Shown here: piece after piece, positions 22,978 through 64,000 of the stretch
How the letters are laid out: each line of letters opens with the position of its first letter
Numbering within the stretch: position 1 is the stretch's first letter
Origin: a virus
DNA: 64,000 nucleotides
IMG/VR virus record: IMGVR_UViG_3300030329_005426
Coordinates: 1-64,000 of that record
Reading direction: 5' to 3' (one strand)
The notes under the pieces: model-generated
What the model saw: the letters and a program-made list of their open reading frames with translations, nothing else
Database searches by the model: none
Told to the model about the DNA's origin: nothing
Translations under genes and position numbers: made by a program

Positions 22978-24864
22978 TTACGTAAAGTATGGTACTTTAT
23001 ATGCAGTACCACCTATTGTTAGTACCAAATGACCGGCCGGATTAGCTACTACCGCGGCATTTAATGGCACAGAACCCTGTGCCGTAGTAACATCTGCTGT
23101 ATTACCTGACTTAACAGCTGTTGCAATAACACCATTTGCGACTTGAATTCTGTCTGATACGAGCAATCTGATAGCTGTATTAGTTGAAGTTAGATTAGTA
23201 TTGAGGTTACTAATAGCAGAATTAGTATTAGCTAATCCTTGGTTACTTAATAACCTAACCGCAGTATTAGTTGCCAATAGATTAGTATTGAGGTTACTAA
23301 TAGCAGAATTAGTATTAGCTAATCCTTGATTACTTAATAATCGTATTGCTGTGTTAGTTGCCAATAGATTAGTATTGAGATTACTAATTGCTAAGTTAGT
23401 ATTAGCCAACTGTACATCTGTTGACATCGATGCGATATAAGAATTGGTGTTAGCTAAAGCTGCTCTTTCTCTAGCACTAACTGTAGCGATATAAGAATTG
23501 GTGTTAGCTAAATTACTGGCTTGTTTTGCTTCTTGCGTATCAAGAGCAGATTGTGTATTTGTATTTAATAACCTGATTGCAGTATTAGTCGCAGTTAGGT
23601 TTGTATTAAGATTACTGATAGCCGCGTTAGTATTAGCTAATCCAGTATCTCCTCCTCCAGAAGAGGCAGCAATATAAGCGTTAGTATTAGCTAAAGCTGC
23701 TCTTTCTCTAGCGCTAACTGTAGCGATATAAGAATTGGTATTAGCTAAAGCTGATTGATGTGCAGAATTTGCAACTAAATTTGATGAAATCCAGGATCTT
23801 CCATAACCCCAATCATCAGTCCATTCTCTAGAAGCGAGTTGTTCAGTTGTATTTGAAAATAAACCAGTCGCATTTGCCGAAAGTGTAGTACTACCAAGTT
23901 TAATAGTAGCACCGGATAGATATAAATCTTTCCATTGTCTAGTAGAAGAACCTAAATCAAATGTATTGCCTGAAGCGGGGATAATAGCCTTTGTTTGGAG
24001 TGTAGTTGTGATATTATTACTTGAACCACCACCACCTTCGGCGTCTGCACCAATCCATTTACCTGTTGATGCTTGAAATTGTAAATACTTACCATCAACT
24101 TTAGCTGAGTCTCTATTTACATCATCAAGAAATTCGAGTCTTACTTCACCACCACCGCTTCCACCAGTAGCTACTATTCCTCGTTGGACTTGACGTCTAA
24201 TTTCAGTTTTAAATTTTTCGTGTTGTTCTATTATAGGTGTGATATCTGGAGAATTGCCGGGTTCGCCATCCATTCCAGGGCGACCGGGCTGTCCTTTTTC
24301 TCCCTTTGGTCCTACAGGACCTTGTTTACCAGCCGGCCCTTGATCACCCTTAGGGCCAACTTCTCCTCGTAGGCCAGGCACACCGTCGTTGCCCTTTTCT
24401 CCTTGTTCCCCTCTAGGGCCGCGAATTCCTTGTTCTCCCTTACTACCCGGTAATCCTTGAACACCAATGGGGCCGCGATCTCCTTTTTCTCCTTGCTGTC
24501 CTTGCTCTCCGAGTAATCCTCTTGGGCCGGGTTCTCCTTGCGATCCTTGTTCACCTTGTGGACCGGCAATACCTTCTGGCCCCTGAGGCCCGACAGGTCC
24601 AATTTCACCGATAAGTCCGTCATTACCCTTTTCTCCTTGAAGACCAATAGGCCCTTGTTCTCCTATAGGGCCTCTTTTTCCAATCTCACCTTGTATACCC
24701 CGTTCACCAGGAGTACCTTGAGGACCAATAGGTCCTTCTACAAGTGGTGGAATAATTATAGAATCTTCTAGTTCCGAAAGCAACTCTTTTTTTTGCTCTT
24801 TGAGTCGTTTTTCGGTAACACCAAGAACGGTAGCTAGAAGTTTTGCCTCATCTATCGTCTTCAT
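22978..24864 (-). CDS. Collagen triple-helix and ANTN coiled-coil fibre protein
   Basis: 54 uninterrupted Gly-X-Y triplets, [13 protein letters not shown] linker, LANTN repeats, C-terminal YKVPYF. Confidence 0.9.
23160..23760 (-). repeat. Intragenic repeats encoding LANTN modules (87-nt / 29-aa period)
   Basis: 23191-23253 is nearly identical to 23278-23340, and 23450-23510 to 23687-23750. Confidence 0.85.
24250..24735 (-). repeat. Collagen Gly-X-Y repeat (54 triplets)
   Basis: Counted directly from the translation, GPI through GNS. Confidence 0.95.
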
Positions 24865-26590
24865 CGTCGCTCTCGATCTCTGCCATACTGTCCATGAAGC
24901 GGCTCATGCTTTCCAAAAGCTCTTTTTCTTCTTTGGATGGTTTAGACGGAGGCTCGAAAGGTACCGTATTCGCTGCTTCTTGAACGGGCGGCACTGGTGC
25001 ATCAGGCGTCTGAGGCTGTGCTGCAGGACTTCGTGGCTCAGGCGGAGCTCCTTGGCTCTGATCCTGGCCTTGATCCTCATCGTCACCTTCATATTCACCT
25101 GCGTTTTGCTCTTTCTTTATTTCTTGATCTATTAGCTTGATATCATCATCATTCATTCGAAGAATATTTCGTTTTACCCATGCCTTGGAGAAATAATCTT
25201 CTGTAAATTGTGCTACCTCGCCAAGCATACGTAAACGTGATTCCAAAACCTCTGTTTCTTTAAGCTCTTGGTAATGATTATCTTCAAGAAAATCGTAATA
25301 GATATGTTCTTTTATTTCTTTCCAATCTTGTTTAGTTGTAATACCTTTAAGAATTAATTGTGTTTCTAAAAGTGTATCAAATAGAATTGAAAATCGTTTT
25401 CGCAGACGATTAATAAACTTTGCAAATTTAACTTCATCTCGTGTTATCTCACTAGCACGACCTATGTTAAATTGATTATCTGCTTCCATTCGTGTTGACG
25501 GTACATTTAAAGCCTTATAAAGCTTCTTTTTAAAATATTCAACATCTTCCATTTCACCTAAATTTTGTCCACCTGGAAGTGTTGTAATTTCTGTTCCCCT
25601 ACCACCTTCACGTCTCGGTAACCAAAAGTCTTCGAGCATGGTCATAAATTTTCGATCATCTCGTACTTCACCTGTAGCGGCGTCGTAGACGAGTCTATTT
25701 TTATGTTTGACCATCATATCACGAAGATATTGTTCTGCTTTAGCTTTTGGCAGATTGCCTACGTCAATATAGAATATACGCCTCTCTGGGGCTCTTGCTA
25801 ATCGGTAGATGACCGTTGCGTCTTCTAACATGCGTAGCTGGTTAAGTGGTTTAATGGCTTTATGCAAGTAACCTAATACAAGTTTACTCCGTTGATCCAT
25901 TTGACCACTAGTAACGTGACAAACACTGTCTTTAGATACCTTAAGGCCCTGCTGTGAAGATTGCAAGCCTTTAGGATTATAAAGAAAGTATTCGTTATAT
26001 CCTAAGTGAACCTCATTCTTTTTTCCAGCAGGAGTATTTTGACCTAATTGTCCTTGCTTCTTTTTAGGTTCACGTACTTTTCTAATTTTTCGGGGATCAA
26101 TATACCTTAATTCCTTGATACCAGCACGAGGTTTTTTAACATCAATCATAATATGGTAATAGAGCCTACCATCTACATACCATCTTTTAAATATATCATA
26201 GGAATTGTTATTGAAATTAAGTAGTTTGAGAATTTCCGTAAATTCACTGTGAATAGATTTTTTAATATTAGCGGGGAGTTTACTTCGGTCAAGTTTAACC
26301 TGTACAGAAGGAACTTCTACATCATCGCTAAAAATAATTGCATCATTAACGATATCATCGACGGCTAATTCAGCTTCAGGCTGCATTGCCATTTCGCGAT
26401 ATCGAGTTACTAATTCAGCTTCGGTTTTTGCAGTACCTTCCAAATCTACGTAGGTGCCATATACACCTCCTGGAGCAATTTCCATAGCTCCATCTTCTGA
26501 TGGCGGTGGTGCAAAAGAAGGGACTGCGACCGCTTCCTTGGTCTCATCCTCTTTTTTACCGATCTGAAATCCGAACAATTCAATGGCCAT
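24848..26590 (-). CDS. 20: Portal protein gp20
   Basis: YRLARAPERRIFYIDVGNLP and EDFWLPRREGGRGTEITTLPGG motifs. Confidence 0.98.
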   Translation of the reverse strand: MAIELFGFQIGKKEDETKEAVAVPSFAPPPSEDGAMEIAPGGVYGTYVDLEGTAKTEAELVTRYREMAMQPEAELAVDDIVNDAIIFSDDVEVPSVQVKLDRSKLPANIKKSIHSEFTEILKLLNFNNNSYDIFKRWYVDGRLYYHIMIDVKKPRAGIKELRYIDPRKIRKVREPKKKQGQLGQNTPAGKKNEVHLGYNEYFLYNPKGLQSSQQGLKVSKDSVCHVTSGQMDQRSKLVLGYLHKAIKPLNQLRMLEDATVIYRLARAPERRIFYIDVGNLPKAKAEQYLRDMMVKHKNRLVYDAATGEVRDDRKFMTMLEDFWLPRREGGRGTEITTLPGGQNLGEMEDVEYFKKKLYKALNVPSTRMEADNQFNIGRASEITRDEVKFAKFINRLRKRFSILFDTLLETQLILKGITTKQDWKEIKEHIYYDFLEDNHYQELKETEVLESRLRMLGEVAQFTEDYFSKAWVKRNILRMNDDDIKLIDQEIKKEQNAGEYEGDDEDQGQDQSQGAPPEPRSPAAQPQTPDAPVPPVQEAANTVPFEPPSKPSKEEKELLESMSRFMDSMAEIESDDEDDR

Positions 26591-53038: not shown

Positions 53039-55327
53039 TTACCTATGTCCTGTGTGATCAAGTGTACTTACTGCTGCCATTATGTTATTTGAGGCCCCTG
53101 TTTGACCCGGCATATTATTAGCAATATACATTGTTCCGAGGAATACATCACCTTCCTGGAAGTCTCTAGTAAGGAACAATTTAGTATTACTGACGACGTT
53201 ATTAACAGTGTAAATTGTCGAATTACCAATCGCAGTCTGTGATAACATGCCACGAATGATAATAGATTGACCAGCGGTAGGTCTTCGACTACCGAAGGTA
53301 AACGTAACATTTGGATTAGATGTATTAGAAGCCAATACCATATCCATATCTTTTGTCAGGCTGCTAATTGAACTAGTAAGATAATTACTGATTGTATTAG
53401 TACCTGTACTGCTAATTAAGAATGTATTCTTAATTAATATACTATGTCGCAGAGGTCGTCCTGCTCTATGATGTGCAGTCCAAAGCATACTATTACTTGA
53501 ATCAATTGTGCTTACTGTTGTATCAATTGTCTTAGCAATTTGTAAGTTAACACCTGTAGCAGATGTTCGGCTAAAGTATGTTGCTGGAACTGTAACAGGT
53601 ACAGTATTAGCAATCTGCTGAAGATTGACAAATGATACATCACTAACAATAGCACCAATTTGTGATTGTGTATATGTTTCAACACTATCAGATACAATAA
53701 CAGGTACGTTGAGTGTATTTTCATATACAAGTTCTAGGTCTGGTCCATAAACTTGTGTTGATATTGTAGAAGCATCAAGCTCAGCTTCAACCTGTAATTG
53801 ACCAAATATTTTTTGGCCAGCAGGATGAATTAATTCTTTAACTAAATTTTTATAAGTATCTACAAATTGTGTGCTCTTAACAACATAACTATATTCTTGA
53901 TAATAGAAGTTATCTTGTAGTTTATTATTATAAGACAAAAATCCTTTGGTATCTACATATCTACCCGGATGAGTTATCAAACCAGTAACAAGTGGTAATC
54001 CTTTTCCGGCTTGGGTTCCGGCGCGATCACTATTAGCAATTGATGCAGTATTGTACTTATCATACGAGGAGCCCACGGAATTAAGACGTATGGCTGTAAT
54101 AGCACCCGGAATATTTGCAACAGTTACAACAGCATTTTGTCCTTTAATGCCTCCGTTAGGATCTTGCAATTCTTTATCAGCAATCTCTTGGTCAACTATA
54201 GTCGCTGTCGGTAAATAATTATATCCAAACCCGACATCAGTAACGGTAATTCCACTTATAGTTCCTGTTTCTATTTCTGCAAACTGCAATGCAGATGCTA
54301 ATGTAGAAGATACATTTGCCGCGGCTATATTAGCTTCTAAAACTTGTGTGTTAGATACACCTGAAGCAAATACTGGCCCGGAATTTAATGGTACATCTTT
54401 AACTGCTTCGATTGTTGTTGTTCCAAAAGTTACATTTGATGTATTTGAAATTCCATTAATTGTAAACGATGCCCCGAGACCACTACCACCAGCAATTGTA
54501 ATTACGCTATTACCTAATCTATACCCACTACCACCTGCGCGCAAAGTAAAATTAATAGATGATGTATCAGATGTTCTTATAACGACACCATTAGCACCAG
54601 TACCAGATGTATCACTTACTATTTGAATAACATCCCCAACCTGATGATAACCACCGCCTTGTGTAACATTAAATCCGCTTAAAGGGCCTGTTGTTGAAAA
54701 TACTGTTCCGTTAATAGTATTTGAAGCATTGCGAACTAACTCACCATCATTAAATGTTCCGTTAATAGCAGATAGAAACATTTCATCAACCTGCACACCA
54801 AGTTCAGATGTTTTTTCCACGCGCTCTACTTTAGCATGGGCACCTGATTCAGCACCGTATATAATAAGACCATCTAATTCAGCGCGATCACCTGTTCCCG
54901 GTGATGATACACGAATAGATGTTTCTTGAATCCATCGACCGTCACTTGTCCGAAGCATATCAACACCCGGATAATAAAAATCGATCTCCTCATTATAAAT
55001 CATTCTAAACAATAATCTATAAGCGGCTTGTGTGCCCTTAGCACGATACAAATCTTTAATATGCTTAACGAGTAATCGTTTATCTGCTAATGCAGTTTGG
55101 GGTATTCTATCCATTACTTCTGATTTGAAATATTGGATAAATTGATCTAAAGTATTATCGATATCTCTATAATCTAATAAATTTTTGGCACGTTCAGTGG
55201 CATTACCGCTTTGTTCCATCCATTCATAATACGCTTCTATAAACTTTTGAAATTTAGGAGCGTCTTCTTGGATGAAATCAGGTAGCTGTTCTGCAATCAG
55301 TGCTGACGTGATATTATTAGTAGCCAT
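53039..55327 (-). CDS. 7: Baseplate wedge initiator gp7-like
   Basis: F.EAYYEWME, Y.AKGT, LQDNFYYQEYSY and HPAG motifs. Confidence 0.8.
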   Translation of the reverse strand: MATNNITSALIAEQLPDFIQEDAPKFQKFIEAYYEWMEQSGNATERAKNLLDYRDIDNTLDQFIQYFKSEVMDRIPQTALADKRLLVKHIKDLYRAKGTQAAYRLLFRMIYNEEIDFYYPGVDMLRTSDGRWIQETSIRVSSPGTGDRAELDGLIIYGAESGAHAKVERVEKTSELGVQVDEMFLSAINGTFNDGELVRNASNTINGTVFSTTGPLSGFNVTQGGGYHQVGDVIQIVSDTSGTGANGVVIRTSDTSSINFTLRAGGSGYRLGNSVITIAGGSGLGASFTINGISNTSNVTFGTTTIEAVKDVPLNSGPVFASGVSNTQVLEANIAAANVSSTLASALQFAEIETGTISGITVTDVGFGYNYLPTATIVDQEIADKELQDPNGGIKGQNAVVTVANIPGAITAIRLNSVGSSYDKYNTASIANSDRAGTQAGKGLPLVTGLITHPGRYVDTKGFLSYNNKLQDNFYYQEYSYVVKSTQFVDTYKNLVKELIHPAGQKIFGQLQVEAELDASTISTQVYGPDLELVYENTLNVPVIVSDSVETYTQSQIGAIVSDVSFVNLQQIANTVPVTVPATYFSRTSATGVNLQIAKTIDTTVSTIDSSNSMLWTAHHRAGRPLRHSILIKNTFLISSTGTNTISNYLTSSISSLTKDMDMVLASNTSNPNVTFTFGSRRPTAGQSIIIRGMLSQTAIGNSTIYTVNNVVSNTKLFLTRDFQEGDVFLGTMYIANNMPGQTGASNNIMAAVSTLDHTGHR

Positions 55328-57198
55328 TAGATTATTACCGTATTAACACCTGTTTCGTTTATCTGGGTAGTAGTTCCGGTAGTTGTTATTTCTTTTACAA
55401 TACTTTCAGTCTTTTTTGTAACATTATTAATAATTGTTATTTCTGAATCAGCAAATAAAGGTATTTGATTTCGTACAGTAAATATATCCGATAAATTAGG
55501 TTTTACATCAACCTTAAGATCCGAACCCGAAATAGCAGTGATTAAGATACTTTCAAGTGTAATTAATCCGCTACTATAATCAACCAAGCCGGCTGCTTCA
55601 TTAGTAACTACTTTTGTAGATCCAGTAGAGAAATAATAAAAATTAATAATACCGTTACCATCATCTTCAAGATATGTTCCCGACCTACCATTATAAGTAA
55701 AGCTTGAAGAAACAACAGCACCTAAGTGCCCCGCATGTGGATTTGAAATAGAATTATTAAAAGGTAATTTATATGTTGATGTCAATTCTGCTGATGGTTG
55801 GAAACGCTTCTGTATTTTTAGATCTACTGCAACGGATACAATACTTGTTTCTTTATCTTCTAACGTTCTCATAAAATCAGATTTATAAAAAGCATCACCG
55901 AAATTACCTAGCTTATCTGTTTCATAATCTTGAATTGCTGTTTGTAGTCTAGTAGATATTTCACCTGCAGATAGCGCTGTCTGTTCCGGATTATATCTAA
56001 TTGTTACTTGAGGAACAATATAAACATAAGATGGATCCACAAATTCTGGATCAATCGACATAACATTTCTTTCTTCTAACCAAATTTTAAGGGCATCTTT
56101 ACGTGCAGAAGATAGTTCGTTACCTATTTTTGGCTTAGCACTGATATAAACTTTACCGTAGATTGGCGGATCATTTTCTTCACCACCCCATACCCTAACG
56201 GTTTGAAAATCTGGATTGGCATTAAGAATTAATTGTTTATAATCATTTGCCGTAACTGCTCGATTCTGTGTTTCATAATTCTTAGGTGCATTAAATTTAA
56301 TTGAAGAAACTGTCTCAACATTTGCACCTCCCTCAGCCGCAGTATTAACCGTTATATCATAATTAGAAAACCCAGTTCCTGTTACAGGATTTAATCCGAT
56401 AAGATCTGGACCGGTAAAGACAGCAGCACCGTTTGTTTCTGTACCAGCACAAATTCTATATGAAGCCTGGATAATATTACCATCAGATGGCTTTTTACCT
56501 AATACACCATCACCGAAATTAATTTCATACTGTCCGTCTAAATTTTCCTGAAGGAAAAATACGGTACTAGAGGCCCCAACGCGCGTTAAATCATTAGCTG
56601 TTTTATATAATTCGAAAGCACTATTACTACTAGATTCAATTACTTTGACTACAATACTTCTTGTATCAACCATCTTATTAGGAATAATATATCTTTCTGG
56701 GGTCGTAGAATTAACTTCCCATTCATGAGCAAAGTGTCTTCCTTCTACTACATCAATTGTAGCCGTATACCCTGCAGCGGCATTTACATTATATGATTGT
56801 TCGGTGACAAAAATATAATCATTACCATCGATCGTAGAAGTAAAAGAAGTATTAGCTGGTATAGTAACCGAGTCTGGTGTACCTGGCGGATTGATATCAA
56901 TTAATAGCTGTGCTGTAGCTCCTTGTGCCGATGTAGGAGTATAACCCAACATCTTAGCCCGTGAAACAACATTATTACGAATCAGAGCGCTATCCAAATA
57001 CATTTCATTCGCCACTTGATTTAGATAGACGGAATTATAATAAGTATTGTAAGCCAGGACATCTAACAATTGAGCCATGGCAGAACCTTCAAAATCATAA
57101 TCTAAGAACTCCGTCTGCGCTGACAGAAAGGATTTTAGATTACTTTTAATAGACGGAAAGTTCGTACTAGTTATTTTTAATGCTGCGTTCGCTGCCAT
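55327..57198 (-). CDS. 6: Baseplate wedge protein gp6
   Basis: DYDFEGS, LAYNTYY, FGDGVLG, QNRAVTANDY and WGGEENDPP motifs. Confidence 0.95.
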   Translation of the reverse strand: MAANAALKITSTNFPSIKSNLKSFLSAQTEFLDYDFEGSAMAQLLDVLAYNTYYNSVYLNQVANEMYLDSALIRNNVVSRAKMLGYTPTSAQGATAQLLIDINPPGTPDSVTIPANTSFTSTIDGNDYIFVTEQSYNVNAAAGYTATIDVVEGRHFAHEWEVNSTTPERYIIPNKMVDTRSIVVKVIESSSNSAFELYKTANDLTRVGASSTVFFLQENLDGQYEINFGDGVLGKKPSDGNIIQASYRICAGTETNGAAVFTGPDLIGLNPVTGTGFSNYDITVNTAAEGGANVETVSSIKFNAPKNYETQNRAVTANDYKQLILNANPDFQTVRVWGGEENDPPIYGKVYISAKPKIGNELSSARKDALKIWLEERNVMSIDPEFVDPSYVYIVPQVTIRYNPEQTALSAGEISTRLQTAIQDYETDKLGNFGDAFYKSDFMRTLEDKETSIVSVAVDLKIQKRFQPSAELTSTYKLPFNNSISNPHAGHLGAVVSSSFTYNGRSGTYLEDDGNGIINFYYFSTGSTKVVTNEAAGLVDYSSGLITLESILITAISGSDLKVDVKPNLSDIFTVRNQIPLFADSEITIINNVTKKTESIVKEITTTGTTTQINETGVNTVII

Positions 57199-57602
57199 TA
57201 TCTTGTTCTCTCTACTGATACGGTTACTTCAGTTGGCTCGATTTGGTTAATCGTTGTAAACTTTACAGTTATATCAAGAGTATTTTCATCTTCTTTAGCA
57301 TCAATTTTAACTTCTTCTAGATCTACACGAGGCTCATAGTTACCAATAGCCTCCTCAATCCTCTTTCGAAGAACTTGTTCCGTCATTGGATCAAAGTTCT
57401 CGAATAGCATAGCACGAATATTTCCACCATAATCAGGTTTATAAGGTCGTTCAAACATATTAGATAGAAGAATGTTCTTGACCGACTGCTTAACAGCATT
57501 GTCATTCTTCTTCAAAGATAAGCTTTTCTTAATAGGATGACGAGAAAACGCTATATCGAAATCCTGAAAAGTTATATTTGGGGCAACCCGACCTTGAGCC
57601 AT
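57198..57602 (-). CDS. 25: Baseplate wedge protein gp25
   Basis: AVKQSVKNI, ERP..P..G and YEPRV motifs. Confidence 0.93.
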   Translation of the reverse strand: MAQGRVAPNITFQDFDIAFSRHPIKKSLSLKKNDNAVKQSVKNILLSNMFERPYKPDYGGNIRAMLFENFDPMTEQVLRKRIEEAIGNYEPRVDLEEVKIDAKEDENTLDITVKFTTINQIEPTEVTVSVERTR

Positions 57603-57643
57603 CTGTTTATTCCTTTGGTATGATTATACTATTTATAATCAAT

Positions 57644-57823
57644 CTATACCGCTTCTGTTTTCTTAGCTTGAATTTCCGCTCGTCTTAGCTTACACACCTT
57701 CGCTATCTCGGACAATAACTTCCGAGCTCTAGTTCCAGCACTCTTATTTCCAGAGGTCTCGAATTTCTCGTTTTCCTCTTTATACTTTTCGAACAGTTCA
57801 GCTATTAATTCATCGTTTTCCAT
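57644..57823 (-). CDS. Hc1 (histone H1-like) family small protein (not in ORF track)
   Basis: MENDEL...GNKSAGTRARKLLSEIAKVCKLRRAEIQ, with GGAG RBS. Confidence 0.7.
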   Translation of the reverse strand: MENDELIAELFEKYKEENEKFETSGNKSAGTRARKLLSEIAKVCKLRRAEIQAKKTEAV

Positions 57824-57848
57824 TATTCTTCTCCATAAGGTCTAAAAA

Positions 57849-58145
57849 TTAGGGACCAGCGTAACAATTATCGGAGCCGGTAGCAACCGAAGTACACCCA
57901 GATATCGCATCTCCTATTCTACCACATCCTAAACCATTAACAAATACGGTAGGAGAGCCAGTAGCGATTGGGGCAGTATGAGTAGGACAAGGAACTCCGG
58001 GTAACAAATGAGGAGTATTATCGTCAGTCTCTCTACTAATACCTATTCCATTAACGAAGACATTATCAGAACATACATCTCTCCTAGGTACAGAGCAGTG
58101 GACAATATCGGCATCTACGGAATCGCCTCTACAAATTGCTGGCAT
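57849..58145 (-). CDS. PAAR spike-tip protein (gp5.4-like)
   Basis: MPAICR, TGSPTVFVNG..CGRIGD, His/Cys metal ligands. Confidence 0.9.
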   Translation of the reverse strand: MPAICRGDSVDADIVHCSVPRRDVCSDNVFVNGIGISRETDDNTPHLLPGVPCPTHTAPIATGSPTVFVNGLGCGRIGDAISGCTSVATGSDNCYAGP

Positions 58146-58359
58146 GATTAGCCCTTTCGTGTGCCATTAATAGTTGTAGCTTATCATTCCATCCATCTAT
58201 TACGGAATGATCCTCTTCAGAATGTCCATCATCAGGCATGTCACCGAGGTCGGGAAGAAATCTTATGACATGAGCTATTTGATTCACTGGAATACTATCA
58301 TAGTCATTATATGTTACAATACTTCCATCAAGTTTTTTGATTCTGAATTCATGTGCCAT
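58129..58359 (-). CDS. Small conserved hypothetical protein
   Basis: HVIRFLP...H.EEDH..I..W motif, GGAG RBS. Confidence 0.6.
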   Translation of the reverse strand: MAHEFRIKKLDGSIVTYNDYDSIPVNQIAHVIRFLPDLGDMPDDGHSEEDHSVIDGWNDKLQLLMAHERANHASNL

Positions 58360-58486
58360 TCTTGACTCTCCATCGTTTCTCCTTTGCATTCCAATAGACT
58401 TCGTCAGGGGATGCATGGGAATTGCCGTGAGACATCTTCTTACCCTTAGACCTAACAGTCTTACCTTTCATTAACTTCTTACCCAT
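58349..58486 (-). CDS. Small basic hypothetical protein (not in ORF track)
   Basis: MGKKLMKGKTVRSKGKK..., fills the gap exactly, GGAGG upstream. Confidence 0.45.
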   Translation of the reverse strand: MGKKLMKGKTVRSKGKKMSHGNSHASPDEVYWNAKEKRWRVKNGT

Positions 58487-60448
58487 TTAACTAAATCCTC
58501 CTGTATCAATATCTTCCGCATTATCGGCATCTCGTCTGGCTCTATTCTGTAATTGTAACATAGTTAATCCCTGTGTAGAAGGTAGAGACTTGGCTAGATT
58601 ACCTTTATCATTAGCCTTGGCTATAACTGATGGAGAATTTGCACCCGTCCCCTCAATATTAGAGCCACCGATATCCTCACCTGTCTTATGTAGATTCATA
58701 AAGCTATCAGCATGTAATTCAGCTTCTGCAAGATTATTCTTAGAATCTTCCCATTTAGTTACTTCTTTTTCTATAATAGGAGAACCACCAACAGTTTCAC
58801 TATGTGAGGCCTTAGCCGTTATCTTAGGTGTAGATACGGGAATAGTAATCTCAGTAGGTAAGTTTACTGTAGTAACATCACCTTCAAGCATATTCTTTTC
58901 TGTATGATTACCTTCCTGTGATTGTATTTCTCCTCCACCCCCCGAGCCGGGCCAATCTGGTTTATTGCCGCCAATAAAGATTTCACCGTCCTTATATGGT
59001 TGTTTACGTAATTTCAATCTTTCTAGGGATACTACCTTCTCTATACTATTATTAGTCTGGGCTAATCCAGGATCGGTAACAAATGGAGGAATAGTAACTA
59101 CTGCTTCTTTGGCATCTTTAGCCGTTCCGGGATTAGATTTACCTGCGGTATTCAGGTGAATATCAGAACCCCCTTCGACAGCTATATCGCCGCCTGCTTT
59201 AATATCGGCCTTGCCCCCCACGTCGGTATCCCAAACCCCCCCCACCCCGGTTGTCCAGGCGCCGCCGGTCTTCAGGTCGAATGTCTTGCCTATACCCTGG
59301 ACCATCTCTTTGCCTACCTTGAGGTTGAGCGACTCGGCTACGTTGGCTGCGTGGTGGCCGGCTGTTACTATATCTACGTTGGCTCCGTATTTAAACCTGG
59401 CGCGACCCTTCGTTACTGTATAGTCGTGGGTATTGGCTACTAGATAGATGCTGCTATTACCTATCGTTCTATTATGATCAACCCTTATATCTTCTTCGTG
59501 CCATCCGTATATGAGACTGTGTACATTAGAGCGGTTCTCATTATCTCCTACTTGTATACGACGATTGCCCTTGACATATAGATAGTCGTTGCCCTGGATC
59601 TCTGTGTATCTATTCCCTTGTACCTGGATACGCGCGTCACCGGCAACGGTTATATTATGTCCCTTCATTATATACATATGGTTATTCGCAAACACCACGT
59701 CATAGTTATTACCTACTACACGTGTCTGCTTATCACCGCTATCATCTATCTGATAATACGTGCCACTCTTATGATATTCGTGTATACGTGCGTGGCCTGG
59801 TGTATCATCTACCTCGAATACATGACCGGCCTCATACTCGCGGACGTGATTGCGTGGGTAGGATGCCTTATACGTCGAGACGGGTTGGTCATAGGATAGA
59901 CTATTATTAGAGGACGAAATGGGGTTGCTATTTGATAGGGCCAGGGGTATCCTCGTACGACCCGTCTCGTTAAAGCCCTCGTGATGAGACTGCTTAATAC
60001 GCCGTGTACCGTTATTCCCAGGTTCTATGTAGTCTTCATTACGGGCCAGGCGAGAGACATCTGGTTCATCGAAACGACCAGTATCCTTATCCGGCTTCAT
60101 GTCTGCACCATAAGTCCACTCAGGTATTCCAGGGACTGCGCCAAGGACCATAGGACGTTGCGCTTCGATCGCATCCATAAAGAAGCCGAGTACCATAGAA
60201 CCAACTATAAGTCCCGTGGGTGATGTACCTATATCCGCTTTCTGTCCCGACGTTACCGGCATAATAACTTGGGCCCACGGTAAGGCTTCGGTTGGTAATG
60301 ACTTAGGATCTTGATCATGGACTCCGTATATACGAACACGTACACGACCAGTCTTCAAAGGATCATCACGATCCTCGACTAATCCAAACCACCATTTAAA
60401 GCTATTACCGACATCATTAGGATGTCTAGAGTCCATCGTTTCGGCCAT
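58487..60448 (-). CDS. 5: Baseplate central spike gp5 (OB fold + beta-helix, no lysozyme domain)
   Basis: VEDRDDP...GRVRVR, LPWA, YPRNHV, GHVFEVDDTPG..RI...H.SG, 8-aa beta-helix repeats. Confidence 0.92.
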   Translation of the reverse strand: MAETMDSRHPNDVGNSFKWWFGLVEDRDDPLKTGRVRVRIYGVHDQDPKSLPTEALPWAQVIMPVTSGQKADIGTSPTGLIVGSMVLGFFMDAIEAQRPMVLGAVPGIPEWTYGADMKPDKDTGRFDEPDVSRLARNEDYIEPGNNGTRRIKQSHHEGFNETGRTRIPLALSNSNPISSSNNSLSYDQPVSTYKASYPRNHVREYEAGHVFEVDDTPGHARIHEYHKSGTYYQIDDSGDKQTRVVGNNYDVVFANNHMYIMKGHNITVAGDARIQVQGNRYTEIQGNDYLYVKGNRRIQVGDNENRSNVHSLIYGWHEEDIRVDHNRTIGNSSIYLVANTHDYTVTKGRARFKYGANVDIVTAGHHAANVAESLNLKVGKEMVQGIGKTFDLKTGGAWTTGVGGVWDTDVGGKADIKAGGDIAVEGGSDIHLNTAGKSNPGTAKDAKEAVVTIPPFVTDPGLAQTNNSIEKVVSLERLKLRKQPYKDGEIFIGGNKPDWPGSGGGGEIQSQEGNHTEKNMLEGDVTTVNLPTEITIPVSTPKITAKASHSETVGGSPIIEKEVTKWEDSKNNLAEAELHADSFMNLHKTGEDIGGSNIEGTGANSPSVIAKANDKGNLAKSLPSTQGLTMLQLQNRARRDADNAEDIDTGGFS

Positions 60449-62001
60449 TAAAGATCTCCTACATTATAATCACATACATTAAAGTCAAACGGAGACCTAG
60501 CGAAAGCGTTCTTAGTCACAGAGACAGTAGTATGTAACTCATCATTCTCAGATGAATACTTATGCTTGACTGCGGTCACTAGGAAAGTCGATCCATCTAG
60601 ACTATTAGACCATAACCTATTAAGCTCAGCCAATCGAGCCCCATTGTCTTGGTCGTTAGTTTGCGGTATATGGACTTCAACAGTCTGTCCTACCATAGTA
60701 TTCGTATGTCCTGGCACAGTTATATTCAATACAATCTTATCTTCTGAAGCCCAAGAAGCCACAGCCTTATGCAGTTGTGTGTGCCTATTACGGTCCCAAT
60801 ACATCTGCCTATCGTTGATCTTTTCTGTGCCATCATCCCTCTCTTCACTCACACGACCCTTTAAATAAACGGCATTTTTATAGGACCCTTCTAATTTCGG
60901 GGTTTCGGTTGAGATAATGTATCTTCCCTTAGAACTCCCATCAAACTTAGCCTTATCCATCTCATCTGCCTCTGGGTGTATGTCCTTAAACTTCTCTCCT
61001 AAACCTATAGTTACAAGGTTTCCCTTATCAAAGTCTGTTCCATAGTGCCATTTACGCTTTGTATATGTCTTTCTCAGTGGATCTAGAGTAGATACTGTAT
61101 TATCATAGTAGCCTTCATTGATATCATATACCATATCTTTATTATTAATGATGGATATACCTTCTATTACCGTGGCTTCACTCTGTTTCTTACCTGTGCC
61201 CATATCTTGTACATTCATATCACCTGTATACATATCGTCACAGTGTATGTTCTGCATGCTTTTATACCACGATTCTCCGTATCCTCCATAGCCTTTTCTT
61301 AGTTGAGCAAGTGAAGTAAAGTGAAATCCATCCGATCTCTCGAAGAATAGGTAATCGCATACTGGCATTGTCGACCCAGTCTCTTCGTCTACAATGGATG
61401 TTACACTCTCTTTACACACCTGATTGATAAGATCTATTGGACTTCTGCCATTTGCAATGATATGCAGTGGTCTCTCAGGAGTAAAGACTTTGGTATCGAA
61501 GCAGATGTGTAGGGGTTTGTCTCGGTATCCTGGAAGTTTCTGTAGACGATCATCTGGGTTCTGAAGGTAATTACTGTAAACTCTCTGTATGATCTTTCCA
61601 GCACTGAGACCTTGATATGCACCTTTAACGGAAGTATGGAGATCCCTAATAAATTCTTGGGAAACACACTCTAAGATATAGACTTCATCTCTTTCTTTAT
61701 ACCAAGATCTCTCTTGTATACCTTGAACTCTAAACCAATGTCGGGTATACTCGAAGTCTTCTCCACCGGTTTTATATGAAATATAGATATACTCTTGTCC
61801 GACAATCGGAAACCTCTCTACCAAACCCTGAGCATCCATAATACCCAGACCCATCTTCATAGTCGGAGCATAGAGATCTTCGTATATCGAGAACTCCATA
61901 ACCATTTGTTTGATGTCGATTACGTTCTTTAACGTAAAGTCTATAAGGTTTATGAACTCGATATCGACTCGAGTTGGTTTAGATATTGCTGCTCCAGCCA
62001 T
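60448..62001 (-). CDS. Baseplate hub protein (gp27-like)
   Basis: IYEDL, PIVGQE, YLFFE...GFHF, I.VPG and FLVTAVKH motifs, synteny. Confidence 0.7.
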   Translation of the reverse strand: MAGAAISKPTRVDIEFINLIDFTLKNVIDIKQMVMEFSIYEDLYAPTMKMGLGIMDAQGLVERFPIVGQEYIYISYKTGGEDFEYTRHWFRVQGIQERSWYKERDEVYILECVSQEFIRDLHTSVKGAYQGLSAGKIIQRVYSNYLQNPDDRLQKLPGYRDKPLHICFDTKVFTPERPLHIIANGRSPIDLINQVCKESVTSIVDEETGSTMPVCDYLFFERSDGFHFTSLAQLRKGYGGYGESWYKSMQNIHCDDMYTGDMNVQDMGTGKKQSEATVIEGISIINNKDMVYDINEGYYDNTVSTLDPLRKTYTKRKWHYGTDFDKGNLVTIGLGEKFKDIHPEADEMDKAKFDGSSKGRYIISTETPKLEGSYKNAVYLKGRVSEERDDGTEKINDRQMYWDRNRHTQLHKAVASWASEDKIVLNITVPGHTNTMVGQTVEVHIPQTNDQDNGARLAELNRLWSNSLDGSTFLVTAVKHKYSSENDELHTTVSVTKNAFARSPFDFNVCDYNVGDL

Positions 62002-62564
62002 TATTCAAACACAGTCCTGACTTGAGCGATAACTTCCGGTACAAACTCGGTATCTAATATGGAAATCTCGCGGAGTTTCTCGTTCTCTTCGTCTTCATAC
62101 TCATACTTTGTCTTAATCTTCTTATGGGTAGATGATACGGTATTATAGGTTTTCAAGTCTATGTTGATCCATTTCTCTTTTACGATCGTTCCATCTGTCA
62201 GAACCTGATGATCGGTGATCCTTTGCATATATTGATGTACGGTTTCTCTGGCTGCTGCAGTCGAACCATACTTGTTTTTAATATACTTGTCAAGCAAAGG
62301 CTGAGACTTTGGCCATTCCCAGTGGGGATCTACCATTACATTTACGAGTATGATGATCCAATCCAGACGTGAATCATCATAATAGTTATGAGCAATGCTC
62401 TCTGGTGTATCTGATGGAGTGATTTGATGTCTATAATAGATAGCCTGCCTCTCAGTTAGGAATTGTTTTATTGAAAACCCCGCTGTAAGATCCATCATTT
62501 CCAGAGGCAAATTATTCTTATGGAGATCATAGGAGATGATTGGATAGTTTTTAAATAAATGCAT
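62001..62564 (-). CDS. 53: Baseplate wedge protein gp53
   Basis: DTPESIA..YY.D..L.WIIIL.N...DP..EWP and YEYE...NE motifs. Confidence 0.9.
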   Translation of the reverse strand: MHLFKNYPIISYDLHKNNLPLEMMDLTAGFSIKQFLTERQAIYYRHQITPSDTPESIAHNYYDDSRLDWIIILVNVMVDPHWEWPKSQPLLDKYIKNKYGSTAAARETVHQYMQRITDHQVLTDGTIVKEKWINIDLKTYNTVSSTHKKIKTKYEYEDEENEKLREISILDTEFVPEVIAQVRTVFE

Positions 62565-62569
62565 TATCT

Positions 62570-63562
62570 TTACCTATGCTCGCTGACAATATCATCACGC
62601 GTCGTGATGGTTGTTTCTGTAAATGACATAGAAATAGTTATCGAAGCAGGAGAGGGTGAATCACCACCGTTCTTATGGTACAATGGAACACCTTCACCAT
62701 GATAGTCTACATCAAATGTTGTTAGAACCGATGGAGCAATATTAAATAGATACTTAGGATGGTTAAAGTCTATGTCAAACTCGTTAGGATATTTGAATAG
62801 GTGCTTATTGCTGCTCATGTCGGGATGCATATGTATCTTGAAAATCCTAATAATCTCGTTTAGCTTATCGGTTTCGGGCTTGTCTTTTGGCATAAACTTA
62901 TAGCTGAACGAATGTGATCTAAAGCCTGTTCCTGTGAATAGCTGAGCCATATGAGGGTTTATAGCATGTCCAGCACCTGCAGCCATACCACCTTTAACGG
63001 CATTCTGGGCGCCAACACCAGCGACAGCACCGGTGATTGTTCCTACGGTTCCTCCTATTTTATTACCAAGCGCAGCAGCACCCAATGGAGCTAATTCATT
63101 TTGTAGAAGACCCAATCCAGCTGCGGCAACAGCATCGCCAGTGGCCGCCTTGTTAAATGCACCTTGAATCCCTGCCTTGACCTGATCTACTATACCGGCG
63201 CCTTCGACTCCAGCATCGATACCGGCAGCCGTCGCCATACCCATAATACCAAGACCTTCCTGAGCATAGTTTGCTTTATACCCTGTTTTAAGAGTACTCG
63301 GCAACGGTAAAGCGATACTATTTAATATCTTAGTTATCTCTCTTTCACGTCTCTGAAGTTTGTTTCGCTCATATGCATGAAAGACTATCCAGTGACCTTG
63401 AGATGATAGATCATCTGGAAAATTAGACATTAACCCAAACTCTTTACCAGAATTTGAACCAAAAGCCTTGTTAAATTTATTAACCCTACTATTAGACGGG
63501 TTGCGGGCTCCTGGTCGTGTGGCGGATGCTGGTCCTTTTGTTGTCTGTGAAGCTGTTGCCAT
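62570..63562 (-). CDS. 48: Baseplate tail-tube cap gp48-like
   Basis: NP....LF.G..FRSHSF.YKF.PK...E and YPNEF motifs. Confidence 0.8.
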   Translation of the reverse strand: MATASQTTKGPASATRPGARNPSNSRVNKFNKAFGSNSGKEFGLMSNFPDDLSSQGHWIVFHAYERNKLQRREREITKILNSIALPLPSTLKTGYKANYAQEGLGIMGMATAAGIDAGVEGAGIVDQVKAGIQGAFNKAATGDAVAAAGLGLLQNELAPLGAAALGNKIGGTVGTITGAVAGVGAQNAVKGGMAAGAGHAINPHMAQLFTGTGFRSHSFSYKFMPKDKPETDKLNEIIRIFKIHMHPDMSSNKHLFKYPNEFDIDFNHPKYLFNIAPSVLTTFDVDYHGEGVPLYHKNGGDSPSPASITISMSFTETTITTRDDIVSEHR

Positions 63563-63588: not shown

Positions 63589-64000
63589 ATGGCTTATAGA
63601 GGTAAATTCAAACCCCGCAACCCGGCAAAATACGTCGGTGATCCTACTTCTATTATTTATAGAAGTTCGTGGGAGCTTCGCTGCATGAATTACTTTGATT
63701 TGACAGAAGATATCATACAATGGGCTTCTGAAGAAGTCGCTATACCTTATAAAAGCCCTATCGATGGCCGTATCCATAGATATTACCCCGATTTCATCCT
63801 AAAAGTCAAGACCAAATCTGGTAAAGAAGAAACACATATGTGGGAGGTTAAACCATATAAACAATCGATTCCTCCTACTGTTCAAACGAAGAAAACTAAG
63901 CGATATATCAATGAAGTTAGAACATATGCCATAAATAAGTATAAATGGGATGCAGCACAACTATATTGTAAAGAACAAGGCTGGCATTTTAAAGTTATCA
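63589..64000 (+). CDS. 4: Head completion nuclease gp4 (runs off window; not in ORF track)
   Basis: MAYRGKFKPRNPAKYVGDPTSIIYRSSWE...WASEE...HRYYPDF...EVKP, preceded by CTAAATA. Confidence 0.92.
   Translation, partial: MAYRGKFKPRNPAKYVGDPTSIIYRSSWELRCMNYFDLTEDIIQWASEEVAIPYKSPIDGRIHRYYPDFILKVKTKSGKEETHMWEVKPYKQSIPPTVQTKKTKRYINEVRTYAINKYKWDAAQLYCKEQGWHFKVI

Follow-up and report, generated by a model that had tools for sequence, protein, structure and literature searches.

What could keep close to two kilobases of coding DNA free of A- and T-runs in a phage genome in which such runs are otherwise very frequent? The question is raised by the first 64 kb (hereafter the window) of a 154,113-nucleotide (nt) IMG/VR virus record with 39% G+C content (GC), which belongs to an uncultured marine T4-like phage. 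A preliminary description of the window had reported the absence of runs of four or more A or T (A4+ or T4+) between about 58900 and 60820, inside the central-spike gene gp5 and a gp27-like hub gene. The limits of this desert were found to be exact: it extends over 1921 nt (58900-60820) and covers codons 1-516 of gp5 and codons 395-517 of gp27. The frequency of runs elsewhere was also as described, with 782 of them in the window (12.2 per kb) and 2039 in the whole genome (13.2 per kb). The minus strand carries every gene around the desert. The gp5 gene (58487-60448, minus strand) encodes a protein of 653 amino acids with an OB domain and a beta-helix, without a lysozyme domain and with an orphan C-terminal domain, and the gp27-like gene (60448-62001, minus strand) encodes 517 amino acids of PHROG 350. 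The desert crosses the border of the two genes at 60448, as had been claimed, and the effect spans all of gp27; the wider anomaly comprises the gp27-like gene and the first ∼516 codons of gp5. The analysis identified the depleted sequences as structural A-tracts, and the pattern may reflect selection on the duplex itself.

No other gap in the window or elsewhere in the genome is as long as this one of 1921 nt, and the runner-up (1115 nt) is located in gp23. For T4+ runs on the coding strand, the empty span is larger still (57849-62473, minus strand) and includes PAAR, orf95, gp5, gp27, and most of gp53. At 4625 nt, it exceeds all other gaps of this kind in the genome and is 2.7 times as long as the runner-up. 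Expected numbers of runs were derived with the protein sequence held constant in all null models, and amino-acid composition is thereby ruled out as the cause. In gp5 codons 1-516, no run was observed against 11.5 expected from the codon usage of the genome and 7.8 expected from synonymous shuffling within the gene, and none of 5000 draws gave 0. In gp27 codons 395-517, 4.0 runs were expected and none was found (P = 0.004). Over the whole genes, 17.5 runs were expected in gp5 and 19.9 in gp27, but only 2 (z = -5.6) and 5 (z = -4.7) were present, with no T-run on the coding strand of gp27. The two genes are the two most extreme outliers among the ∼120 genes of the genome. A genome-wide test of the longest gap, which involves no post-hoc choice of region, was carried out with 300 randomisations of each of three kinds, i.e., codon-usage resampling, per-gene synonymous shuffling, and dinucleotide-preserving synonymous shuffling. 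The largest gaps obtained were 1281, 1340, and 1841 nt, respectively, and none of the 900 randomisations reached 1921 nt. Under the dinucleotide-preserving shuffle, 6.0 runs were expected in the desert, with a probability of 0.0007 of finding none. The preliminary description had allowed that codon shuffling might dissolve the depletion, which survived every shuffle. Elsewhere in the genome, a UvsX/RecA-like gene (genome positions 132572-133669; L186:573-1670, minus strand) also showed context-specific avoidance of A/T-runs (11 against ∼21 expected), with a local-shuffle z of -4.0, a z as strong as that of gp5, and a milder avoidance of this type was observed in gp23 and gp18.

To define what is depleted, tetramers composed of A and T were sorted into ten strand-symmetric classes, three without a TpA step and seven with one. 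Those without TpA were found 37 times against 131.9 expected, and each of the three classes contributed: AAAA/TTTT (9 against 53.3, ratio 0.17), AATT (7 against 23.7, ratio 0.30), and AAAT/ATTT (21 against 54.9, ratio 0.38). The seven TpA-containing classes were present at 297 against 303.6 expected, and in the rest of the genome all ten classes lay at 0.88-1.19 of expectation. The structural definition of an A-tract is AnTm, with n + m ≥ 4 and no TpA step (Duan et al., 2021, PMC8476142). The depleted set is exactly this structural class. Both strands are affected, as a property of the duplex would predict, and T-runs are excluded somewhat more completely, the counts on the coding strand being 9 against 36 expected for AAAA, 0 against 17 for TTTT, 14 against 32 for AAAT, and 7 against 23 for ATTT. 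Low AT content was ruled out as the cause, as stretches of 4-6 bases consisting of A and T only occur at expectation. The preliminary description had proposed a cis-acting DNA-shape element. The shape component of that proposal agrees with the restriction of the depletion to tetramers without TpA, on both strands, ATTT and AATT included (14 against 46.8 for the two together); the functions proposed for the element, a replication origin or a packaging start, found no such agreement.

The A-tracts are almost absent because T-ending codons are never, and A-ending codons seldom, used where a run would grow. At codon junctions at risk of forming a run, the A-ending synonym was picked in 7 of 46 cases and the T-ending synonym in 0 of 23, as against 49% and 40% elsewhere, and the usage of A- and T-ending codons at no-risk junctions is close to normal. 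Phenylalanine was encoded by TTT in 22 of 28 cases without a flanking T and in none of the 6 cases with one, where TTC was used throughout (6/6). Among the codon shifts claimed earlier, those to AAG (0.59 vs. 0.36) and ATA (0.47 vs. 0.27) were borne out, whereas that to TTC is only slight overall (0.35 vs. 0.30) and becomes complete beside a flanking T. A synonymous shift was observed even where no run is possible, from ATT to ATA, from GTT to GTA or GTC, from AAA to AAG, and from GAA to GAG, with GCC and CAC also raised. The relative abundance of AA/TT (rhoAA/TT) in the segment was 0.79-0.83 compared with 1.04 ± 0.08, and that of TA (rhoTA) reached up to 1.28 compared with 0.91 ± 0.09. The edges of this signature are sharp and lie near 58.0-58.4 kb and 62.0-62.4 kb. 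Upstream, gp53 and the gp48-like tube cap gene (62001-63562, minus strand) show the same preference for NAG over NAA as gp27 and gp5, with a milder run depletion that codon usage alone explains. On the downstream flank, gp25, the PAAR tip protein gene, and orf95 (57198-58416, minus strand) show a partial shift. Helical periodicity (10-11 nt) of TA or AA/TT in the segment was inside the range of the genome.

The same test in relatives, for which the preliminary description had called, was applied to ∼180 related loci that were retrieved via gp6 or gp5 and total 1.67 Mb, and gp5 and gp27 showed no desert there. The ratio of observed to expected runs was 0.84 in gp5 orthologues (n = 101) and 0.98 in gp27 orthologues (n = 78), the same as in gp6 and gp7; no orthologue had z < -3.5, and the shift in NTA or NAG codons was missing in all of them. 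A conserved property of gp5 and gp27 was thus rejected, the desert being missing in 179 orthologues and in T4. Among the genes of the relatives with at least 12 expected runs (n = 507), the minimum ratio was 0.30, compared with 0.11 and 0.25 in two adjoining genes here. None of the ∼180 sampled loci had a gap longer than 1679 nt, and none carried this signature throughout. Hence, the desert is specific to the lineage of this phage. A weaker depletion restricted to gp5 was observed in some near kin, i.e., in L085 (11 against 22 runs) and L087 (5 against 11.5). The strongest depletion among 831 genes of the relatives was found in a 5.3-kb gene of the baseplate region (L057:14123-19432, plus strand), with 22 against 54.9 runs, z = -6.5, and a local-shuffle z of -7.4. 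In L002, the closest relative by gp6 (53% identity), rhoAA was 0.82-0.87 and rhoTA was 1.13-1.28 across gp6-gp7 (L002:1001-5000), the same genes being normal in the window; this signature fits a donor lineage and a clade-wide tendency alike.

The best reading of these results appears to be selection that is specific to the lineage, acts on the duplex itself, and disfavors AA/TT steps; it is offered tentatively, as somewhat short of probable. The synonymous codons of gp27 and of gp5 up to about codon 516 avoid ApA/TpT steps. According to this reading, the pattern would have arisen within the phage's own lineage, and selection would maintain it via the double helix rather than via mRNA or translation. 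The outcome would be 2-3.5 kb of DNA free of rigid, narrow-groove, bend-inducing elements, which could deny sites to a protein or nuclease reading A-tracts or narrow minor grooves, or could keep the DNA straight and flexible. A nucleoid-protein-free zone, a further function proposed in the preliminary description, may thus be conceivable. For H-NS, MvaT, and Rok, which act as silencers, a preference for TpA steps has been described (Duan et al., 2021, PMC8476142). With TpA enriched in the stretch, these proteins would not be escaped, and only Lsr2-type readers of AATT or A-tracts would be excluded. The encoded proteins are ordinary, and the position of gp27 and gp5 in the family trees matches that of the neighboring gp6; the earlier statement that the proteins remain typical is in agreement with this.

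Several observations weigh against selection on the duplex. Codon usage is atypical at no-risk sites, where gp5 ranks 2 and gp27 ranks 7 among 50 genes. The Karlin delta* distance of the segment is 0.142-0.156 compared with 0.071 ± 0.028, placing it in the top three windows of the genome, and its GC is 43-50% compared with 39%. The dinucleotide signature accounts for most of the effect: the dinucleotide-preserving shuffle leaves per-gene residuals of z = -1.9 to -2.9, and imported DNA also has a deviant signature. The 3' edge of the anomaly coincides with a protein-domain linker. Strong depletions in other structural genes of other phages, such as that of L057, would also suit mosaicism or gene-specific translational selection. 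Two details fit ribosomal slippage better, namely the depletion of in-frame T_TTA (2 against 9.2 expected) and the weaker avoidance of A|TTT. Finally, no binding partner, motif, or function was identified.

Some of these points would be accounted for by an imported cassette, in which homologous recombination with a close relative that is absent from the sample and has low AA/TT, high TA, and higher GC supplied gp27 and the gp5 body. The desert would then be the signature of the donor, its erosion incomplete. We consider such an import the main alternative, possible if unlikely. It is consistent with the dinucleotide deviation, the highest in the genome, with the sharp edges and raised GC, with the odd codon usage at no-risk sites, and with the use of GGG codons that are otherwise rare in the genome. 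The signature shared with gp6-gp7 of L002 also points to import, as do the more than threefold variation in overall run usage among related phages and the tendency of run-poor genes in the relatives to encode the spike tip or to be giant baseplate genes, both of which are readily exchanged. The position of the 3' edge is a further argument for it. In gp5, the anomaly reaches to about codon 500-516, where a G6 run (58938-58943, minus strand) encodes the Gly-rich linker GSGGGG at the border between the strain-invariant gp5 body and the strain-variable C-terminal domain; codons 501-653 show the usual low GC at third codon positions of the genome again. Near-identical strains form a gp5 cluster of 10 members with 93-100% amino-acid identity, on contigs of up to 154 kb in ENA, JGI, and Logan. 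Most amino-acid differences between strains fall in the last ∼214 residues of gp5. For this part (residues 440-653; 58487-59130, minus strand), 5.8 billion proteins contained no homologue other than those in the protein's own 90% cluster. A mosaic origin of this domain was rejected, its homologues being only inside that cluster.

Phylogenetic analysis argues against a distant donor. The trees of gp6 and gp27 both place the phage in the same 22-taxon clade, with support of 99 and 95, respectively. L085 and L092 are among the nearest rows in the gp6, gp27, and gp5 N-terminal trees, and L003, the nearest in the gp6 tree, falls in the small clades of the phage in the gp27 and gp5 trees. The identities of gp27 and gp5 to relatives are those of other pairs at equal gp6 identity. 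Since the trees are congruent and the divergence is proportional, no distant or high-GC donor is visible, although with the nearest sampled relatives at 46-53% gp6 identity the tree test is powerless against a donor among unsampled close kin. A recent transfer from a high-GC donor, envisaged in the preliminary description, accordingly has no counterpart in the gp6, gp27, or gp5 trees. Close homologues of the segment were found in none of three collections (viral, metagenome, and genome contigs), and neither mobility genes nor flanking repeats were found at the segment. Moreover, the sampled loci include none that carries the signature as a whole, and the gap exceeds those of the dinucleotide-preserving shuffles too, both of which count against import.

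Selection at the level of translation was evaluated next to selection on the duplex. Expression-linked codon bias was rejected, the scores on the main codon-usage axis being -3.58 for gp23, -0.99 for gp5, and +0.05 for gp27. Matching to phage tRNAs was rejected, only tRNA-Pro(TGG) and tRNA-Thr(TGT) being encoded. Selection on mRNA structure was rejected as well, the folding of gp5 and gp27 being like that of synonymous shuffles (z = +0.7 and +0.8), and so was enrichment of hidden stops (the 'ambush' hypothesis), for which z was at most 2.1, in one frame. A more specific proposal is error avoidance, in which A/U slip runs are shunned so that truncated subunits from frameshifts in transcription or translation do not poison the trimeric hub, of which one per virion is needed. 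In-frame Z_ZZN motifs are indeed depleted (23 against 66.4 expected, z = -7.0), T_TTA and A|TTT behave as slippage would have it, and milder context-specific run avoidance is seen in the genes of the abundant proteins UvsX, gp23, and gp18. It is also known that codon pairs generally avoid mononucleotide repeats (Tats et al., 2008, PMC2585594). Slippage avoidance alone fails, however, because ATTT and AATT, which are not slippery, are as depleted as the slip motifs, TAAA and TTAA are spared, and G-runs, which would be at least as slip-prone, are enriched. The gp5 gene contains G8, G6, G6, and G5 runs derived from GGG glycine codons, together with several C4 runs, and GGGG occurs 16 times against 6.3 expected. 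In addition, off-frame stops are not enriched, the other long structural genes, which lie between those of the sheath and the major capsid protein (22978-24864 and 24848-26590), are undepleted, and the pattern is absent from the orthologues in relatives. Error avoidance is therefore regarded as rather improbable.

The G-runs of gp5 are clustered at the downstream end of the desert. Of the nine G/C runs of at least six bases in the genome, three are inside the desert, within 58938-59243. The 154-kb genome contains a single canonical G-quadruplex motif, which is located at 59230-59248 on the minus strand (GGGGTGGGGGGGGTTTGGG) and consists of GGG glycine codons of the gp5 beta-helix; five of six glycines near the motif are encoded by GGG, the rarest glycine codon in the genome. 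A speculative extension of the reading based on the duplex is that the A-tract-free, TpA-rich stretch and this motif together form a cis-acting element in the central-spike genes. Such an element might be a zone free of a minor-groove-reading protein or nuclease, or a flexible segment in which recombination or replication is set off by the G-quadruplex, directly upstream of the tip domain of gp5 that varies between strains, and similar shape deserts might recur in other genes of marine T4-like phages. This extension is held to be improbable.

It was also considered that the pattern has no function and results from a local mutational or gene-conversion quirk or from drift in two genes. A single lineage shows the pattern, no function was found for it, and dinucleotide bias captures much of it, all of which would be compatible with such an origin. 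Against it stand the avoidance at risk sites (0/23 and 7/46, compared with 40-49% elsewhere) and a gap unmatched in 900 randomisations. Furthermore, no mutational process is known to strip AA, TT, and AATT yet spare TAAA and TTAA in a 3.5-kb coding stretch. A functionless origin thus has a low probability. A diversity-generating retroelement or reverse transcriptase is an unlikely cause as well, T-runs being lost as well as A-runs.

Least of all do the results support a cis-acting start site in the spike genes, be it a replication origin by analogy with oriE or a packaging start, and we regard it as very unlikely. The preliminary description had placed T4 oriE in the gene 4-53-5 region, and in the T4 record (NC_000866) oriE is annotated inside gene 5, with the antisense genes repEA and repEB. 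The T4 origin requires an early promoter and is characterized by evenly spaced 12-nt iterons (Kreuzer and Brister, 2010, PMC3016281). The genome's sole G-quadruplex motif, on the non-template strand, and a stop-poor antisense frame of gp5 would also be in line with a start site. T4 gene 5, however, has 19 runs against 17.7 expected; since it contains oriE, an A-tract desert is not a mark of this origin, and the analogy lends no weight to the proposal. No iterons or oriE-type repeat family were found among the repeats of 57000-63000, an Rfam scan for structured RNAs gave no match, and promoter-like sites were at chance level (28 against 30.3 expected), by which spurious promoters or terminators were also rejected as a cause of the depletion. 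Five antisense open reading frames (ORFs) matched no PHROG family and included no relatives of RepEA or RepEB. The GC-skew check suggested earlier showed no inflection at the desert; the strand switch and the sole skew reversal lie at ∼64-70 kb, 3 kb away. Nearest-neighbor duplex stability over 58750-60250 was -1.32 to -1.39 kcal per bp, the mean for the genome being -1.289 ± 0.044. This makes the duplex more stable than is usual for the genome, the opposite of an easily melted, AT-rich unwinding element of an R-loop origin of the T4 oriF/oriG type. R-loop extension would also have to proceed away from the bulk of the desert, which lies on the upstream side of the G-cluster, and the pattern is not kept in the 179 orthologues. 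In the antisense frame in question, 20 stops occur where 30 were expected (z = -3.0, the lowest value among 50 genes), and four plus-strand ORFs of 80-100 codons result, all in this one frame; they are probably a by-product of TT depletion.

The desert belongs to a block of late structural genes. Downstream of gp5 on the minus strand are orf95 (58129-58416), the PAAR tip protein gene (57849-58145), gp25 (57198-57602), gp6 (55327-57198), and gp7 (53039-55327), and upstream of gp27 are gp53 (62001-62564) and the gp48-like tube cap gene (62570-63562). A T4-type late-promoter motif, TATAAATA, is present at 63654-63661 (minus strand), upstream of the gp48-gp53-gp27-gp5-orf95-PAAR block. The next one is located at 57630-57637 (minus strand), upstream of gp25-gp6-gp7 and at the downstream end of the spike transcription unit, so that the two motifs flank the block from gp48 to PAAR. 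The window contains nine TATAAATA sites, all on the minus strand (20016, 21215, 22963, 29335, 35169, 39910, 53025, 57630, and 63654). The five compared with gene calls (20016, 21215, 53025, 57630, and 63654) were each directly 5' of genes. By chance, ∼10 sites would be expected over both strands of the window, compared with the nine observed, all on the coding strand, and the motif appears to be avoided on the non-coding strand across the window. The start of gp5 is ambiguous (60436-60448): some assemblies give MAETMDSRH..., overlapping the gp27 stop, and others give MDSRH..., four codons later. A tmRNA (tag ANDNFASEEFALAA) is present in the phage genome, in which Pro-TGG and Thr-TGT are the only tRNAs (genome positions 79062-79498 and 82720-83070). 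The gp7 mRNA (53039-55327, minus strand) is predicted to fold more strongly than its synonymous shuffles, with a mean minimum free energy of -23.2 against -21.2 (z = -3.3), which was not the case for gp5, gp6, and gp27.

Synonymous sites in phage structural genes are usually credited to codon usage and mosaic ancestry alone. Here, a signal in two essential genes matches the textbook definition of an A-tract rather than codon preference, expression, or slippage. If this signal is due to selection on DNA shape, phage coding DNA can hold mechanical or protein-exclusion information on the kilobase scale, and the tetramer-class test would be a simple means of finding further cases. If import is the true explanation, the stretch is the trace of a phage lineage that is missing from the sample and whose genomic signature is very unusual, and the gp27-gp5 body would be exchangeable separately from the tip domain of gp5.

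Comparison with known systems showed partial similarity in each case. As in T4 oriE, a DNA-level feature is present within the gp5 gene of a T4-type phage, and gp5 has open antisense frames. In the phage studied here, however, there are no iterons, relatives of RepEA or RepEB, or early promoter, and T4 gene 5 itself is not depleted of A-tracts. Karlin dinucleotide relative abundance is a measure used for genomic-signature islands of horizontally acquired DNA. The segment resembles such compositional islands in having the strongest local dinucleotide deviation, raised GC, and sharp edges, and differs from them in the absence of tree conflict, donor, and mobility genes and in a deviation that follows the divide between A-tracts and TpA and exceeds dinucleotide-preserving controls. 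Similar to the repeat avoidance described for codon pairs, synonymous choice at junctions suppresses A/U runs, and in-frame slip motifs are depleted. In codon-pair studies, G-runs and nnUAnn junctions are generally avoided (PMC2585594), whereas here G-runs are enriched, nnUAnn junctions are favored, and AATT and ATTT are equally depleted; the effect is also restricted to two genes and far stronger (ratio 0.1-0.25). The distinction between A-tracts and TpA that is read by xenogeneic silencers (PMC8476142) is the very axis of the anomaly, although H-NS, MvaT, and Rok favor the TpA steps that are abundant in the stretch.

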